From the NCBI RefSeq assembly GCF_053078305.1, contig NZ_CP166879.1: a stretch of 64,000 bases of DNA, one strand, 5' to 3'. The translations under genes and the position numbers were made by a program. Under the pieces are notes generated by a model. The model was not told the origin of the DNA and did not search any database. It saw only the letters and a program-made list of their open reading frames with translations. The stretch's first letter is position 1. Every line of letters begins with the position of its first letter. Shown piece after piece: positions 2,447 to 61,403 of this stretch.

Positions 2447-3247
2447 TTAGTCCAGTTCGTTATCGAGATCGTTGTTACCAGCTGCCTGAGCAGGCGCACC
2501 GGCTACGCGGTTGTATTTCGGGCTAAGTTGGATGTAGAGCACTGCCATAACAGTACCAATCACACCCAGAGCAACCAGGTTAAAGTTGGTGAATGCTGCG
2601 GTTACGAAGCCGAGGTAGAAGAACGGCATCAGGTAGCCAGCACGCATCATGTTGATAACCATCGCATAACCAACCACCACGATCATGCCACCGGCGATAT
2701 TCAGACCATTGGTCACCACTTCCGGAATCGCATTCAGCATGTTCTGTACTTCGCTGGTACCTACAGACAGCGCAACGATGACGGCCGGAATAGCCACACG
2801 CATTGCTTGCAGGAACAGAGAAGAAACGTGGATCCAGGAAATCGCTGTCAGGTTGCCGTTATCAGCAGCCTTATCCGCAGCGTGCTGGAAAGCAACGGTA
2901 ATAGTACGAACGATGATGGTCAGTACCTGGCCCGCAGCGGCCAGAGGGATTGCCAGTGCAATACCTGCACCAATGCTCTGATGACCTGCGATAACCAGAA
3001 TGGTAGAAATGATAGATGCCAGAGCGGCGTCAGGCGCAACTGCAGCACCGATGTTCATCCAGCCCAGCGCGATCATTTCCAGCGTACCACCGATAATAAT
3101 ACCGGTTTTCATATCCCCAAGAACGATACCCACCAGGGTACACGCGATTAGCGGACGGTGAAACTGAAATTCATCGAGGATTGATCCCATACCTGCGATA
3201 CAGGCTACGATAAATACCAGCACAATTTGAAGAGTGGTAATCTCCAT
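2447..3247 (-). CDS. manY: PTS mannose transporter subunit IIC (ManY)
   Basis: 266-aa polytopic membrane protein, 3 nt after manZ start, operon arrangement. Confidence 0.95.
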   Translation of the reverse strand: MEITTLQIVLVFIVACIAGMGSILDEFQFHRPLIACTLVGIVLGDMKTGIIIGGTLEMIALGWMNIGAAVAPDAALASIISTILVIAGHQSIGAGIALAIPLAAAGQVLTIIVRTITVAFQHAADKAADNGNLTAISWIHVSSLFLQAMRVAIPAVIVALSVGTSEVQNMLNAIPEVVTNGLNIAGGMIVVVGYAMVINMMRAGYLMPFFYLGFVTAAFTNFNLVALGVIGTVMAVLYIQLSPKYNRVAGAPAQAAGNNDLDNELD

Positions 3248-3309
3248 TGTACTTCTCCTGTTTACGTAAGACTAAAGTGTGAAAACTGAGTGATAATCAA
3301 CACAATACG

Positions 3310-4281
3310 TTACTTATCGATTTTGCTGATCAGATCCATCATTTTCAGTTTCGGATCGGTGGAAACCTTACGGACTTCCAGCTCAATACCGCGTGCATTC
3401 AGTTTTTTGAACGCCTCGATATCTTTTTCATCAACCGAAACCGCGTTATTCACCTGGGTTTTACCCTGACGGAATGCCATACCACCGACGTTAACAGAGG
3501 TGATTTTCACGCCGCCTTCAACGAGACGCTCTACATCTGTTGGGTTGGTAAATAACAGCATTACACGTTCGCCAGCATATTTCGGGTTGTTGTAGACGCG
3601 AATCATTTTGGCAACATCAACTACGTGTGCTGTTACGCCCGGAGGTGCAACCTGGGTGAGCAGTGTCTTACGAACGGTATCCGCAGCCACTTCATCACTA
3701 ACAACAATAATACGGGAGACATTGGTTTCTTTGGTCCAGCGGGTGGCGACCTGACCGTGAATCAGACGGTCGTCGATACGCGCAAGGCCAATAACCATGT
3801 AGTCGTTTGGCCCCATTGGTTTTGCCGGAGTTGGAGCCGATTTTGGTGCTGCGGCAGCGGGTGCTGGCGCGGCTTTTTCAACCGGTTTGGCTTTCAGTGC
3901 TTTCACGCCTTCACGGCCTGTTTCTACTGCCAGCGCAACCAGTTCATCAAAGCTTGGGTCATCATCACGAGCCATTAACGTTTCCACGAGCATTGGAATG
4001 TTAACGCCTGCAATGACTTCATAATGCTCTTTGTCGACGACAATGCGGCTGGCAGCATTGAACGGGCTGCCTCCCCATGTATCAACGAGAAACAGCACGC
4101 CTTTAGTGGTGTCGAGTTTTGCCAACTGAGCGTTGTACTTTTCAATCAGCGTTTCGGCATTTTCACCTGGAACGAAATCGATCCAGCCGACGTTTTCCTG
4201 CTCGCCTAACAGCATTTCTGCCGTTTTAAGCAACTGCTCTGCAGCCCAACCATGTGTGCCTATAACAATAGCAATGGTCAC
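3310..4281 (-). CDS. manX: PTS mannose transporter subunit IIAB (ManX)
   Basis: 323-aa two-domain protein with Ala/Pro-rich linker KAAPAPAAAAPKSAPTPAKP. Confidence 0.95.
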   Translation of the reverse strand: MTIAIVIGTHGWAAEQLLKTAEMLLGEQENVGWIDFVPGENAETLIEKYNAQLAKLDTTKGVLFLVDTWGGSPFNAASRIVVDKEHYEVIAGVNIPMLVETLMARDDDPSFDELVALAVETGREGVKALKAKPVEKAAPAPAAAAPKSAPTPAKPMGPNDYMVIGLARIDDRLIHGQVATRWTKETNVSRIIVVSDEVAADTVRKTLLTQVAPPGVTAHVVDVAKMIRVYNNPKYAGERVMLLFTNPTDVERLVEGGVKITSVNVGGMAFRQGKTQVNNAVSVDEKDIEAFKKLNARGIELEVRKVSTDPKLKMMDLISKIDK

Positions 4282-4398
4282 TTGCTACCTCCTTTATTAT
4301 CGTTAACACCTCAACGTGCCAGATGTATTTTTGAATCGTCGTCCACAATCGAATCGATTCAGATAAGGGCTACAACCAAAAACCCCTGCGTTTCGCGA

Positions 4399-4446
4399 TT
4401 TATTTTAGATATCGAAAAAATTATTTTATGTGATGAAGATCCGTAA
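4399..4446. promoter_or_regulatory. Candidate Mlc and CRP operators in the manX promoter region
   Basis: TTATTT-N9-AAAAAA (Mlc/NagC-like spacing) at 4400-4420 and TGTGA half-site at about 4428-4445; assignment by established knowledge that manXYZ is Mlc/CRP controlled. Confidence 0.4.
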
Positions 4447-4743
4447 TTTAACTTTCGATTAGCAGAAATTTCGAAAGGTAAAATATCCTTGTCACATTCG
4501 TTTGCAAAGGAAGGTAAATCTTTGCCAAATCAGAGGCGTCTCTGATATGTTTAACTCCCGTTTAACAACCATGGAGTATAGGGCAGTAGCCCGCAGTATG
4601 GATCGTCACCGACGTCATTTCAGCATCAGGCCTTTTAACGCCTGCCTTTCTGGCACTCTATGCCGCACCTTTCGTTTGCATTTTGTCGTTACGCCTGCAT
4701 TATTTCTGGCGTCGAATAGCTATTCCTTAAGCAGGAGCTTGTC

Positions 4744-6300
4744 ATGGAATTCTTAATGGACCCCTCAATTTGGGCGGGGCTACTCACGCTTGTTGTTCTC
4801 GAAATTGTGCTGGGTATCGATAACCTGGTCTTCATCGCCATTCTTGCTGACAAACTGCCGCCAAAACAACGCGATAAAGCGCGTTTGCTGGGGTTATCAC
4901 TGGCGCTGATTATGCGTCTGGGGCTGCTGTCGCTGATTTCATGGATGGTCACGCTGACCAAACCGCTATTTACCGTCATGGATTTCTCCTTCTCCGGACG
5001 CGACCTGATTATGTTGTTCGGGGGGATATTCTTGCTGTTCAAAGCAACAACCGAACTGCATGAACGGCTGGAAAACCGCGATCATGATTCCGGCCACGGT
5101 AAAGGCTACGCCAGTTTCTGGGTAGTCGTCACACAGATTGTCATCCTTGACGCCGTCTTCTCGTTGGATGCGGTAATTACTGCTGTAGGGATGGTTAACC
5201 ATCTGCCGGTGATGATGGCGGCGGTAGTGATTGCGATGGCGGTTATGTTGCTGGCATCCAAACCGCTGACGCGATTTGTTAACCAGCACCCCACGGTGGT
5301 GGTGCTCTGTCTGAGCTTCCTGTTAATGATTGGTCTGAGTCTGGTGGCAGAAGGTTTCGGTTTCCACATTCCGAAAGGTTACCTGTATGCCGCGATTGGC
5401 TTCTCGATCATCATCGAAGTGTTTAACCAGATTGCGCGTCGCAACTTTATTCGTCACCAGTCGACTTTGCCGCTGCGAGCGCGTACTGCCGATGCCATCC
5501 TGCGTTTGATGGGCGGGAAACGTCAGGCCAATGTTCAGCACGATGCCGATAACCCGATGCCGATGCCGATCCCGGAAGGTGCATTTGCCGAAGAAGAACG
5601 TTACATGATTAACGGCGTACTGACGCTGGCGTCGCGTTCTCTGCGCGGGATCATGACGCCGCGCGGTGAAATAAGCTGGGTTGACGCTAATCTCGGGGTC
5701 GATGAAATCCGCGAGCAGCTGCTCTCCTCACCGCACAGCCTGTTCCCGGTATGTCGCGGTGAACTGGATGAAATCATCGGAATCGTACGTGCTAAAGAAC
5801 TGCTGGTGGCGCTGGAAGAGGGCGTTGATGTGGCGGCGATTGCTTCGGCGTCTCCGGCGATTATCGTCCCTGAAACCCTCGATCCGATCAACCTGCTGGG
5901 CGTGCTGCGTCGTGCTCGCGGGAGCTTTGTTATCGTGACCAACGAGTTTGGTGTGGTACAAGGCTTGGTCACGCCGCTGGATGTGCTGGAAGCCATTGCG
6001 GGTGAATTCCCGGACGCTGACGAAACGCCGGAAATCATTACTGATGGTGACGGCTGGCTGGTAAAAGGCGGTACAGATTTGCATGCCTTGCAGCAGGCGC
6101 TTGATGTTGAGCACCTTGCCGATGACGATGATATCGCGACGGTCGCGGGCCTCGTGATCTCGGCAAATGGTCACATTCCCCGTGTGGGCGATGTGATTGA
6201 TGTAGGGCCACTGCATATCACCATCATTGAAGCCAATGATTATCGTGTTGATCTGGTTCGCATTGTTAAAGAGCAACCGGCGCACGATGAAGATGAGTAA
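4744..6300 (+). CDS. yoaE: TerC-family integral membrane protein with C-terminal CBS pair and CorC-type domain (YoaE)
   Basis: 518-aa ORF, N-terminal multi-TM region and C-terminal soluble domain. Confidence 0.9.
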
Positions 6301-16582: not shown

Positions 16583-18268
16583 TTGAAGAAGGTTTGGCTT
16601 AACCGTTATCCCGCGGACGTTCCGACGGAGATCAACCCTGACCGTTATCAATCTCTGGTAGATATGTTTGAGCAGTCGGTCGCGCGCTACGCCGATCAGC
16701 CTGCGTTTGTGAATATGGGGGAGGTAATGACCTTCCGCAAGCTGGAAGAACGCAGTCGCGCGTTTGCCGCTTATTTGCAACAAGGGTTGGGGCTGAAGAA
16801 AGGCGATCGCGTTGCGTTGATGATGCCTAATTTATTGCAATATCCGGTGGCGCTGTTTGGCATTTTGCGTGCCGGGATGATCGTCGTAAACGTTAACCCG
16901 TTGTATACCCCGCGTGAGCTTGAGCATCAGCTTAACGATAGCGGCGCATCGGCGATTGTTATCGTGTCTAACTTTGCTCACACACTGGAAAAAGTGGTTG
17001 ATAAAACCGCCGTTCAGCACGTAATTCTGACCCGTATGGGCGATCAGCTATCTACGGCAAAAGGCACGGTAGTCAATTTCGTTGTTAAATACATCAAGCG
17101 TTTGGTGCCGAAATACCATCTGCCAGATGCCATTTCATTTCGTAGCGCACTGCATAACGGCTACCGGATGCAGTACGTCAAACCCGAACTGGTGCCGGAA
17201 GATTTAGCCTTCCTGCAATACACCGGCGGCACCACAGGTGTGGCGAAAGGCGCGATGCTGACTCACCGCAATATGCTGGCGAACCTGGAACAGGTCAACG
17301 CCACCTATGGGCCGTTGCTGCATCCAGGTAAAGAACTGGTAGTAACGGCACTGCCGCTGTATCACATTTTTGCCCTGACCATTAACTGCCTGCTGTTTAT
17401 CGAACTGGGTGGGCAGAACCTGCTTATCACTAACCCGCGTGATATTCCAGGGTTGGTAAAAGAGTTAGCGAAATATCCGTTTACCGCTATCACTGGCGTT
17501 AACACCTTGTTCAATGCGTTGCTGAACAATAAAGAGTTCCAGCAGCTGGATTTCTCCAGTCTGCATCTTTCCGCAGGCGGTGGGATGCCAGTGCAGCAAG
17601 TGGTGGCAGAGCGTTGGGTGAAACTGACAGGACAGTATCTGCTGGAAGGCTATGGCCTTACCGAGTGTGCGCCGCTGGTCAGCGTTAACCCATATGATAT
17701 TGATTATCATAGTGGTAGCATCGGTTTGCCGGTGCCGTCGACGGAAGCCAAACTGGTGGATGATGATGATAATGAAGTACCACCGGGTCAACCGGGTGAG
17801 CTTTGTGTCAAAGGACCGCAGGTGATGCTGGGTTACTGGCAGCGTCCGGATGCTACCGATGAGATCATCAAAAATGGCTGGTTACACACCGGCGACATCG
17901 CGGTGATGGATGAAGAAGGGTTCCTGCGCATTGTCGATCGTAAAAAAGACATGATTCTGGTTTCCGGTTTTAACGTCTATCCAAACGAGATTGAAGATGT
18001 CGTCATGCAGCATCCTGGCGTACAGGAAGTCGCGGCTGTTGGCGTACCTTCCGGCTCCAGTGGTGAAGCGGTAAAAATCTTTGTAGTGAAAAAAGATCCA
18101 TCGCTTACCGAAGAGTCACTGGTGACTTTTTGCCGCCGTCAGCTCACGGGCTACAAAGTACCGAAGCTGGTGGAGTTTCGTGATGAGTTACCGAAATCTA
18201 ACGTCGGAAAAATTTTGCGACGAGAATTACGTGACGAAGCGCGCGGCAAAGTGGACAATAAAGCCTGA
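16583..18268 (+). CDS. fadD: Long-chain-fatty-acid--CoA ligase FadD
   Basis: 561 aa from TTG at 16583 preceded by AGAGGTGAAG; track ORF starts 22 codons upstream. Confidence 0.92.
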
Positions 18269-18286
18269 GCGTTAAGTCAGTCGTCA

Positions 18287-18313
18287 GACGCCGGTTAATC
18301 CGGCGTTTTTTTT
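18287..18313 (+). terminator. Intrinsic terminator downstream of fadD
   Basis: ACGCCGG-TTAAT-CCGGCGT hairpin followed by T8. Confidence 0.85.
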
Positions 18314-53938: not shown

Positions 53939-53990
53939 ATCTTTCGTTGATGGCATCAATTGCCAGATGTGCCACTGACGTGTTTTATTT

Positions 53991-54021
53991 GGCCTACAAT
54001 GCCAGTACAGAATTGTAGGCC
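53991..54021. terminator. Inverted repeat between convergent ydjE and pncA
   Basis: GGCCTACAAT ... ATTGTAGGCC 10-bp arms, REP-like tail. Confidence 0.45.
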
Positions 54022-54030
54022 AGCGTAAAA

Positions 54031-54528
54031 TTACCCCTGTGTCTCTTCCCAGTCTGCCAGCGTATATAGCGTTGCCCCAGCAGCTGACATCTCCATAAAC
54101 GCGTGCGCACTGTCCTGTGGCTGGATATTCACGCCACGACAACCATCGGTAATCACGTTTACCTTATAACCTAACTGTAACGCGTCCAGCACGGTAAACT
54201 TCACGCAATAGTCAGTAGCCAGGCCCATAACGATCAATTCATCGATTTCATGATCGCGTAACCAGTCATCGAGAGAGGTTTTCTGCCGACGGCCGTTATC
54301 AAAAAAGGCACTGTAACTGTCAACTAAAGGATTTTCGCCTTTATGGAACACCGCTGCGATCGCTTTTTGGTGCAGTAACGGATGTAATACCGCTTCACCG
54401 CGCGACTGGCACCAGTCAATCAGGCGGTTAGCGACATCCACCGTACTGTCACCTTCCGGCACGGCGAGCGCGCCACCAGCACAGAAATCATTTTGTAAAT
54501 CGACCAGTAACAGGGCGCGAGGGGGCAT
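54031..54528 (-). CDS. pncA: Nicotinamidase/pyrazinamidase PncA, internally shortened allele (165 aa)
   Basis: ATG 54526-54528 with AAGGAG Shine-Dalgarno; isochorismatase-like N-terminus VDLQNDFC; product jumps from ...SRGEAV to LHPLLHQK..., skipping the segment that carries the metal-binding His residues in homologues. Confidence 0.8.
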   Translation of the reverse strand: MPPRALLLVDLQNDFCAGGALAVPEGDSTVDVANRLIDWCQSRGEAVLHPLLHQKAIAAVFHKGENPLVDSYSAFFDNGRRQKTSLDDWLRDHEIDELIVMGLATDYCVKFTVLDALQLGYKVNVITDGCRGVNIQPQDSAHAFMEMSAAGATLYTLADWEETQG

Positions 54529-54538
54529 TGCAGTCTCC

Positions 54539-55555
54539 TTAATCATCCGGCGTCAGTTCGCCGCGCAGGTTTTGGCTCATGGCCTTGCGAATGGTTTCAG
54601 TATCCAGTTCCTGGCTAAGCAGGTAATGCAGTTTGGTTAGCGTGGCTTCTACAGTCATATCTGCACCGCCAATAACGCCAGCATGGGCGAGGGCGTTACC
54701 GGTGGCATAACCACCCATATTCACTTTACCGGACATACATTGTGTCAGGTTGACCACCACAATACCGCGATCGCTGGCTTCTTGTAATTCCTGCAGGAAG
54801 GCTTTGTTTTGTGGCGCATTACCCACGCCATATGAGCGCAGAATCAATGCTTTCACCGGTTGGCGCAGAAAATTGCGCACGACGTCAGCAGAAATCCCTG
54901 GATAAATCGTCACTACGCCAATTGGTTGTGGGGTGATTGGATGAACGATTAATTCCCCTTCACCGTGCGGGGCGGGTGGCGTATTCAAACGACGAATATG
55001 GATACCTGCTTCCAGTAACGGAGGAAGGTTTGGAGAGGCAAACGCATCAAAACCATCGGCATGGGCTTTGGTAGTGCGGTTGCCGCGATACAATCGGTTA
55101 TTGAAAAAGAGCGTTACTTCGTTGATCGGATAATTCGCCGCAACGTACAACGCATTCAGGAGATTAATTTGTCCGTCAGAGCGTAACTCAGCTAGCGGGA
55201 TTTGTGACCCTGTCACAATGACCGGTTTACCGAGATTTTCGAGCATGAACGACAGCGCAGAGGCGGTATACGCCATCGTGTCGGTGCCGTGCAGAATGAC
55301 AAAACCATCATAGTCGTCATAGTGCGCTTTAATATCTTCAGCAATATGCTGCCAGTCTTCCGGCGTCATATCTGAAGAATCCATCAGCGGCGTATATTCA
55401 TGAATGGTGAAATCTGGCATCTCCGGGCGATGGAATTCCGGCATCAGCGCCAGTTGGCGTTGTAGATGACCTGACACCGGAATATAACCCTGCTCGGAAC
55501 GCTGCATCCCGATGGTCCCGCCCGTGTAGGCAACGTAAATTGATTTCTTTTGCAT
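54539..55555 (-). CDS. ansA: L-asparaginase 1 (cytoplasmic)
   Basis: 338 aa from ATG 55553-55555; catalytic TGGTIGM motif; track ORF has 47 extra codons. Confidence 0.95.
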   Translation of the reverse strand: MQKKSIYVAYTGGTIGMQRSEQGYIPVSGHLQRQLALMPEFHRPEMPDFTIHEYTPLMDSSDMTPEDWQHIAEDIKAHYDDYDGFVILHGTDTMAYTASALSFMLENLGKPVIVTGSQIPLAELRSDGQINLLNALYVAANYPINEVTLFFNNRLYRGNRTTKAHADGFDAFASPNLPPLLEAGIHIRRLNTPPAPHGEGELIVHPITPQPIGVVTIYPGISADVVRNFLRQPVKALILRSYGVGNAPQNKAFLQELQEASDRGIVVVNLTQCMSGKVNMGGYATGNALAHAGVIGGADMTVEATLTKLHYLLSQELDTETIRKAMSQNLRGELTPDD

Positions 55556-59441: not shown

Positions 59442-61403
59442 ATGCGGTTGTTTATTGCCGAAAAACCGAGTCTGGCGCGCGCCATTGCGGATGTCCTGCC
59501 CAAACCGCACCGTAAAGGCGATGGCTTTATCGAGTGCGGTAATGGTCAGGTGGTGACCTGGTGTATCGGTCACCTGCTTGAGCAGGCGCAGCCAGACGCC
59601 TACGACAGCCGCTATGCGCGCTGGAATCTTGCGGATTTGCCGATTGTCCCGGAAAAGTGGCAATTACAGCCCCGACCCTCCGTGACCAAACAACTTAACG
59701 TCATCAAACGGTACCTGCATGAAGCCAGCGAAATCGTTCACGCCGGGGACCCGGATCGCGAAGGGCAACTGCTGGTGGATGAAGTGCTGGACTATCTACA
59801 ACTGGCACCGGAAAAGCGCCAGCAGGTGCAGCGTTGCTTGATAAACGACCTGAACCCGCAGGCGGTTGAGCGGGCGATCGACCGTCTTCGTTCCAACAGT
59901 GAGTTTGTACCGCTGTGCGTTTCTGCGCTGGCGCGAGCGCGTGCCGACTGGCTATACGGCATCAACATGACCCGTGCGTATACCATTCTCGGTCGCAATG
60001 CCGGTTATCAGGGCGTACTTTCCGTGGGACGCGTGCAGACACCCGTGCTCGGGCTGGTGGTGCGCCGCGATGAAGAGATTGAAAACTTCGTGGCGAAAGA
60101 CTTCTTTGAAGTCAAAGCGCATATCGTGACACCTGCCGATGAGCGGTTTACCGCTATCTGGCAACCGAGCGAAGCGTGTGAACCGTACCAGGATGAAGAA
60201 GGGCGCTTGTTACATCGTCCACTGGCGGAGCATGTGGTTAACCGCATTAGTGGTCAACCGGCTATAGTCACTAGCTATAACGATAAACGGGAATCAGAAT
60301 CCGCGCCGCTGCCTTTTTCGCTTTCGGCGTTGCAGATTGAAGCGGCAAAACGTTTTGCTCTGAGTGCGCAGAACGTGCTTGATATCTGCCAGAAGCTGTA
60401 CGAAACACACAAGCTAATCACTTATCCGCGTTCCGATTGTCGCTATTTGCCAGAAGAACATTTTGCCGGACGCCACGCGGTGATGAATGCCATCAGCGTT
60501 CATGCACCAGATCTGTTGCCGCAGCCAGTGGTAGATCCAGATATACGCAACCGCTGTTGGGATGACAAAAAGGTCGATGCGCACCACGCCATCATCCCGA
60601 CCGCACGGAGTTCTGCGATCAACCTGACGGAGAACGAAGCGAAGGTCTATAACCTTATTGCCCGTCAGTACTTGATGCAGTTCTGCCCGGATGCGGTGTT
60701 CCGCAAGTGTGTTATCGAACTGGACATTGCCAAAGGCAAATTTGTCGCTAAAGCGCGTTTTCTTGCTGAAGCAGGTTGGCGCGCGCTGTTAGGCAGCAAA
60801 GAGCGCGATGAAGAAAACGACGGCACGCCACTGCCTGTGGTGGCGAAAGGCGATGAGTTGCTGTGTGAAAAAGGTGAAGTGGTAGAGCGGCAAACCCAGC
60901 CGCCTCGCCATTTTACCGATGCAACACTGCTTTCGGCGATGACCGGGATCGCGCGCTTTGTGCAGGACAAAGATCTGAAAAAGATCCTTCGTGCGACCGA
61001 TGGTCTGGGGACAGAAGCAACGCGTGCCGGGATTATTGAACTGTTGTTCAAGCGTGGTTTCCTCACCAAAAAAGGGCGCTATATCCACTCCACCGACGCC
61101 GGAAAAGCGTTATTCCATTCGCTGCCAGAAATGGCTACGCGACCGGACATGACCGCGCACTGGGAATCGGTGCTGACGCAAATCAGCGAAAAGCAGTGTC
61201 GCTATCAGGACTTTATGCAGCCGCTGGTGGGGACGCTATATCAGCTTATTGATCAAGCCAAACGTACTCCGGTGCGGCAGTTTCGCGGCATTGTGGCTCC
61301 GGGCAGTGGTGGCAGTGCTGATAAGAAAAAGGCTGCACCGCGTAAACGTAGTGCGAAAAAAAGTCCGCCAGCAGATGAAGCCGGAAGCGGGGCGATAGCG
61401 TAA
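59442..61403 (+). CDS. topB: DNA topoisomerase III
   Basis: 653 aa from ATG 59442, 4 nt after selD stop; Toprim N-terminus and Lys-rich C-terminal tail. Confidence 0.95.

Follow-up and report, generated by a model that had tools for sequence, protein, structure and literature searches.

The pncA locus

The window, a stretch of 64,000 nucleotides, carries pncA on the minus strand at positions 54031–54528, with 165 codons followed by a stop codon. The gene is an orthologue of Escherichia coli pncA (b1768) that lacks nucleotides 141–284 of the full-length gene. Translation of the minus strand yields a product of 165 residues, MPPRALLLVDLQNDF...SRGEAV-LHPLLHQKAIAAVFHKGEN...ATDYCV...EETQG. The original prediction described a real frame at these positions in which ...DWCQSRGEAV runs straight into LHPLLHQKAIAAVFHKGEN. 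The translation bears out this observation together with the size and the junction; the minus-strand orientation had been omitted.

The gene ansA (asparaginase I, 54539–55555, minus strand) is intact and lies 10 nt upstream of pncA on the same strand. A Shine-Dalgarno sequence, AAGGAG, had been proposed in front of the pncA start and is indeed read from the sequence at 54540–54535 on the minus strand, 6 nt 5' of the ATG, where it overlaps the ansA stop codon (54539–54541). The ATG at 54528 preceded by this motif agrees with the start of reference PncA. A second in-frame ATG at 54546 opens a 171-aa reading frame (MIKETAMPPR...) that overlaps the 3' end of ansA, and the exact 171-aa sequence is absent from the protein collection. 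The order sppA-ansA-pncA with a convergent ydjE is the same in the window, in K-12 and in complete E. coli genomes, where pncA is annotated between ansA and the convergent ydjE.

The intergenic space between the convergent genes ydjE and pncA contains a stem-loop (GGCCTACAAT...ATTGTAGGCC) at 53981–54031, assigned to neither strand. The RNA fold of 53976–54031 has an energy of -20.5 kcal/mol. The stem-loop is likely a bidirectional terminator, as judged from its fold and its position, and it is untouched by the deletion in pncA. It was not listed by a simple terminator scan, and a promoter and terminator scan of the pncA locus returned nothing above chance. A sub-threshold match to naRNA4 (REP-like) is found in the ydjE/pncA intergenic space of locus L001.

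A single Rfam family, the sroD small RNA (RF00370, 115 bits), attains its gathering score in the window. It is located at 18227–18312 on the plus strand, overlaps the 3' end of fadD and extends into the fadD-rnd intergenic region. The stretch deleted from pncA gives no Rfam match even at E<=1.

A 144-bp internal deletion in pncA

The gene in the window was set against the intact PS10-3 allele of pncA, position by position. The two sequences are identical over 140 nt, 144 nt are then missing from the window, and the following 358 nt are identical again. The full-length gene is 642 bp, and the remaining 498 nt are thus 100% identical to the intact PS10-3 allele. The same gap is seen against complete E. 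coli genomes, in which an 801-base query spans 945 bases in two pieces in all top matches. An in-frame loss of roughly 48 codons (144 bp) had been estimated from a length of 213 aa for E. coli PncA. That length is on record for PNCA_ECOLI, as opposed to a reference of about 165 aa, and the loss is exactly 144 bp, forming one internal gap against the 213-aa protein. Alignment to both E. coli and M. tuberculosis (Mtb) PncA likewise leaves a single internal gap in the 165-aa product, and all 165 remaining residues are identical to reference PncA.

The junction, which had been placed within 54385–54390, maps between 54389 and 54388 on the minus strand, that is, between nucleotides 140 and 141 of the gene in the window. 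The sequence across it is GAAGCGGT joined directly to ATTACATC. The deletion comprises gene nucleotides 141–284 and runs from the third position of codon 47 to the second position of codon 95. It removes the 48 codons of residues I48–Q95. V47 is kept through a fused codon (54388–54390) that changes from GTT to GTA, and the next codon is TTA, encoding L48 here and L96 in the reference.

The two identical parts sum exactly to the length of the gene in the window, which fixes the breakpoints without ambiguity and leaves 0 bp of microhomology between them. This argues against slippage and against an assembly collapse. A single direct repeat, GTGAAG, lies close to both breakpoints (at -10 and -13 nt). 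Its two copies are 141 bp apart, so slippage between them would yield a loss of 141 bp and another junction; slippage between direct repeats is rejected for this reason. No inverted repeat joins the two breakpoints, as a hairpin-mediated or inverted-repeat-mediated deletion would have it. A footprint of a mobile element or insertion sequence is not present at pncA in the window. In strain CP131_Sichuan (NZ_CP053720.1, positions 422–1119 of locus L005), IS1B occupies the ydjE-pncA intergenic space and pncA is intact.

The polarity of the event was also considered. A short ancestral form into which 144 bp were inserted is rejected, since the segment and its invariant motifs are present in each of the archaeal, yeast, Acinetobacter and mycobacterial enzymes. 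The presence of the segment in the homologues indicates that the deletion allele is derived.

Residues and structural elements lost and kept

The product was aligned with E. coli PncA, M. tuberculosis PncA (the sequence used is identical to 3PL1), Pyrococcus horikoshii nicotinamidase (1IM5/1ILW), Acinetobacter baumannii (2WT9), yeast Pnc1 (2H0R), and 29IV. The alignment contains 29 invariant columns, eight of which fall inside the gap (D52, H54, H58, S60, W83, P84, H86, and C87). In the Mtb enzyme, iron is bound by Asp49, His51, His57, and His71, and the ring of Trp68 stacks against the substrate (PMC3025910). The metal-ligand equivalents in P. horikoshii are Asp52, His54, and His71 (PMC3025910). 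In this alignment the gap covers E. coli D52, H54, H58, and H86, which correspond to the four Mtb ligands, and the metal-binding segment is missing as had been proposed. All four ligands lie inside the deleted I48–Q95, and neither a metal-binding histidine nor any substitute motif occurs elsewhere in the product. The substrate-stacking W83, equivalent to Mtb Trp68, is deleted as well.

The catalytic triad is kept, again in agreement with the original prediction, and its three residues occupy invariant columns. The codon of the catalytic aspartate D10 (GAT) is located at 54499–54501, that of the catalytic lysine K63 (K111 in the reference) at 54340–54342, and that of the nucleophilic cysteine C108 (C156 in the reference) at 54205–54207, all on the minus strand. 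D10 is equivalent to Asp8 in Mtb and Asp10 in P. horikoshii (PMC3025910).

AF2 models were used as supporting evidence only, as AF2 does not predict stability and the shallow alignments contain 6–7 sequences. The wild-type model has a pLDDT of 92.8 and contains a core strand β2 (46–52), a short helix (62–65), and a β-hairpin (71–83). The deletion takes away five of the seven β2 residues, and the helix and the hairpin are wholly gone. The model of the 165-aa product has a pLDDT of 80.6, with residues 51–69 below 50. This region includes K63, and the model no longer shows β3, the strand that carries the catalytic lysine. The complete six-stranded parallel sheet is absent from the model of the 165-aa product. 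The modeled damage thus extends beyond the metal site to most of β2 and to the substrate-stacking tryptophan, a point that the original prediction had missed.

Family assignment and annotation

The product still matches the Pfam Isochorismatase family (PF00857) with an E-value of 8.5e-26. Residues 5–158 cover positions 2–174 of the 175-position model, so that the domain is compressed. The NCBIfam equivalog NF008623 is matched in two stretches with 292.8 bits, against a cut-off of 174. In the best stretch, residues 46–164 of the protein align to profile positions 94–212, and approximately profile positions 47–93 (about 47 positions) are skipped. Wild-type PncA matches the same profile in one stretch with 417.5 bits.

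Synteny, sequence identity, and the NF008623 score together establish that the gene is, by descent, an allele of E. coli pncA. The split match still clears the cut-off, which accounts for the NCBI annotation of WP_044191492.1 as "bifunctional nicotinamidase/pyrazinamidase". The allele is therefore already in public databases, named as functional though without the whole metal site. Since the metal ligands, the lid tryptophan, and the complete sheet are all missing, it should be treated as a pseudogene-like allele. WP_044191492.1 provides a clean example of an in-frame internal deletion that escapes pseudogene calling.

Distribution and age of the allele

With the E-value limit set to 10, a 50-mer spanning the junction matched none of the 5,426 complete E. 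coli genomes from RefSeq. The 144-bp segment is present exactly once in 5,425 of the 5,426. Among ~15 billion proteins, the 165-aa product is the only member of its cluster. The exact protein is on record as WP_044191492.1, KFD74888.1, and YBJ05444.1. It is encoded on two contigs, one of 383,853 bp and one of 5.94 Mb, which likely come from independent assemblies. The window is identical to JPQG01000004.1 (GCA_000736735.1, a draft) over the 6,498 and 19,970 bases compared. [quoted passage not shown] By these sequence comparisons, the allele is private to strain 48 or its immediate kin.

Several whole-collection searches each matched 5,425 of the 5,426 E. coli genomes, and the missing one is presumably the same each time. 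In addition, two matching places in the collection are on plasmid-typed records. These observations suggest that replicons were mis-typed, that a genome was mislabelled, or that a large stretch was deleted.

ES5 is the closest complete genome over positions 1–40000 of the window and carries a full-length pncA. The SppA and TsaB accessions of ES5, WP_044191489.1 and WP_044191522.1, are numerically adjacent to WP_044191492.1, which suggests that ES5 and strain 48 share these exact two proteins. The full pncA in ES5 and the identity of the remaining 498 nt to an intact allele make the event look recent.

Over 64 kb, the window and ES5 are collinear and differ by 319 substitutions and five indels of 1–2 bp. 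The substitutions are patchy, with 0–2 per 2 kb at 0–8 kb and 30–36 kb and 8–34 per 2 kb from 40 kb on. The flanks of pncA are 100% identical to another strain, PS10-3. This pattern resembles the mosaic that recombination usually leaves in the core genome of E. coli. The gene topB is intact in the window (59442–61403, plus strand; 1,962 nt, no internal stops). Compared with window position 60977, the topB of the close relative ES5 (2949–4911 of locus L003) has an additional A and is annotated as frameshifted.

Origin of the allele

The original prediction left a natural allele, an engineered lesion, and an assembly artefact side by side, and among these the evidence strongly favours a natural allele. 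An artefact would mean that the strain has a full-length pncA and that 144 bp were lost in assembly. The record of 2014, a draft assembly, is what such a reading would build on. However, the exact protein is also found on the 5.94-Mb contig, which cannot simply copy the draft contig of 384 kb. With 0 bp of microhomology and no repeat at the junction there is nothing to collapse, and every genome carrying the 144 bp has them in one copy. Elsewhere in the 64 kb the assembly is clean, and each of the other 62 complete genes is intact. An artefact of assembly or sequencing is accordingly very unlikely. A laboratory in-frame deletion has hardly any probability at all. It would account for a deletion that is in frame and causes no frameshift, but one deletion in three keeps the frame by chance, and designed deletions normally take out nearly the whole open reading frame. 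Here, only an internal 22% of the gene is removed, starting at a third codon position, and the breakpoints show no FRT or lox scar, no cassette remnant, and no restriction-site logic. Moreover, the host is a wild isolate of STEC, and its genome serves as the subAB2-3 allele reference.

The remaining alternatives accept a natural deletion and concern its effect. The shortened protein might be a functional isoform, folded and active as a metal-independent hydrolase or binding protein through the Asp-Lys-Cys triad, in the manner of YcaC or CSHase. Triad and ATDYC motif survive, as do the reading frame and the Shine-Dalgarno sequence, Pfam still detects an Isochorismatase domain, and a weak similarity to YcaC and BiuH remains. 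Such an intact triad in a kept frame may leave the 165-aa product some residual or altered activity. A functional isoform is nevertheless highly improbable. Most of β2 (46–52), a strand kept by every solved homologue, is removed, and the AF2 model loses β3 and the region of the catalytic lysine (pLDDT below 50). The metal-free family profiles score 36–40 bits against cut-offs of 310–370, no better than with the wild type. The occurrence in one strain only gives no sign of upkeep by selection.

Alternatively, the deletion may be inactivating and selected, by resistance to toxic nicotinamide analogues or by nicotinamide/NAD homeostasis in a host niche. pncA mutants of enteric bacteria resist 6-aminonicotinamide. 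In Salmonella, a disrupted pncA is also fixed in the U288 clade of Typhimurium, which is pig-adapted, and in Choleraesuis (PMC8065163), and an adaptive loss in strain 48 would form a parallel to this clade-defining loss. In a variant of this reading, the in-frame product may persist as a protein that binds nicotinamide without hydrolysing it. However, the allele is found in one strain and does not recur among the 5,426 genomes. Parallel lesions were not found either; the IS1 element near the pncA of CP131_Sichuan spares the gene. Adaptive loss is thus unlikely, and the deletion would rather reflect neutral drift without selection.

Proposed event and functional consequence

Taken together, the allele is very probably a natural, recent, strain-private loss-of-function allele of pncA in wild STEC E. 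coli 48, produced by a single microhomology-free deletion. One illegitimate event would have taken 144 bp, encoding I48–Q95, from pncA, and the frame would have survived by the one-in-three chance given above. A polypeptide of 165 residues is probably made, since pncA follows ansA by 10 nt and has its own AAGGAG.

Without the metal ligands, W83, most of β2, and the lid hairpin, the product should fail to hydrolyse nicotinamide and pyrazinamide. Metal depletion inactivates E. coli PncA, and Zn2+ fully reactivates it (PMC6941528). Single substitutions at Mtb D49, H51, H57, or W68 abolish the activity or nearly so (PMC3025910). Given the metal requirement of the E. coli enzyme, the 165-aa product is predicted from its sequence and model to be almost certainly inactive. 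It is probably also misfolded, as judged from the AF2 model.

In the cell, the nicotinamide to nicotinic acid step of the PncA-PncB salvage route would be lost. This loss is expected to be harmless while de novo NAD synthesis works. When grown on nicotinamide, a delta-nadC delta-pncA mutant has a generation time of 381 min versus 53 min for delta-nadC, with a weak XapA bypass (PMC3923242; BW25113, M9). If the reading is confirmed, strain 48 represents a natural pncA-null background, expected to be pyrazinamidase-negative and poor at nicotinamide use when de novo NAD synthesis is limiting. The weight of the finding for biology at large is small, as pncA is a dispensable salvage gene that is well understood, and genes of this kind are routinely inactivated here and there. 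The allele is an ordinary strain-specific, in-frame inactivating deletion and not a new kind of enzyme.

Comparison with known systems

E. coli K-12 PncA (PNCA_ECOLI, b1768) shares with the strain 48 allele the locus, the start codon, the Shine-Dalgarno sequence, and all remaining residues. The K-12 protein is an active Zn-dependent amidase, whereas the strain 48 product lacks residues 48–95 and is predicted to be inactive.

The pyrazinamide-resistance alleles of M. tuberculosis, such as D49G, H51A, H57D, and W68L, affect the same element, the metal site and the 51–71 lid. Those alleles are drug-selected, and the ones cited here are point changes. In contrast, strain 48 carries a 48-residue deletion with no sign of selection, in an organism that is not treated with pyrazinamide.

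Natural inactivation of pncA in enteric bacteria is already known from Salmonella. The pncA pseudogenes of the Typhimurium U288 clade and of Choleraesuis are likewise losses of a dispensable salvage gene in a natural enteric lineage (PMC8065163). The Salmonella lesions are clade-wide, are listed as insertions that disrupt the coding sequence, and are defining for the U288 clade (PMC8065163). Unlike these insertions, the lesion in strain 48 is in frame, is confined to one strain, and is still annotated as functional. A literature search for the E. coli allele or for natural E. coli pncA pseudogenes returned no description, the precedents being those in Salmonella only.

YcaC, N-carbamoylsarcosine amidase, and BiuH share the Asp-Lys-Cys triad and have no metal site, like the product of strain 48. 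However, these proteins keep a complete six-stranded sheet, while the strain 48 product has lost a core strand, and has lost it by deletion and not by descent.
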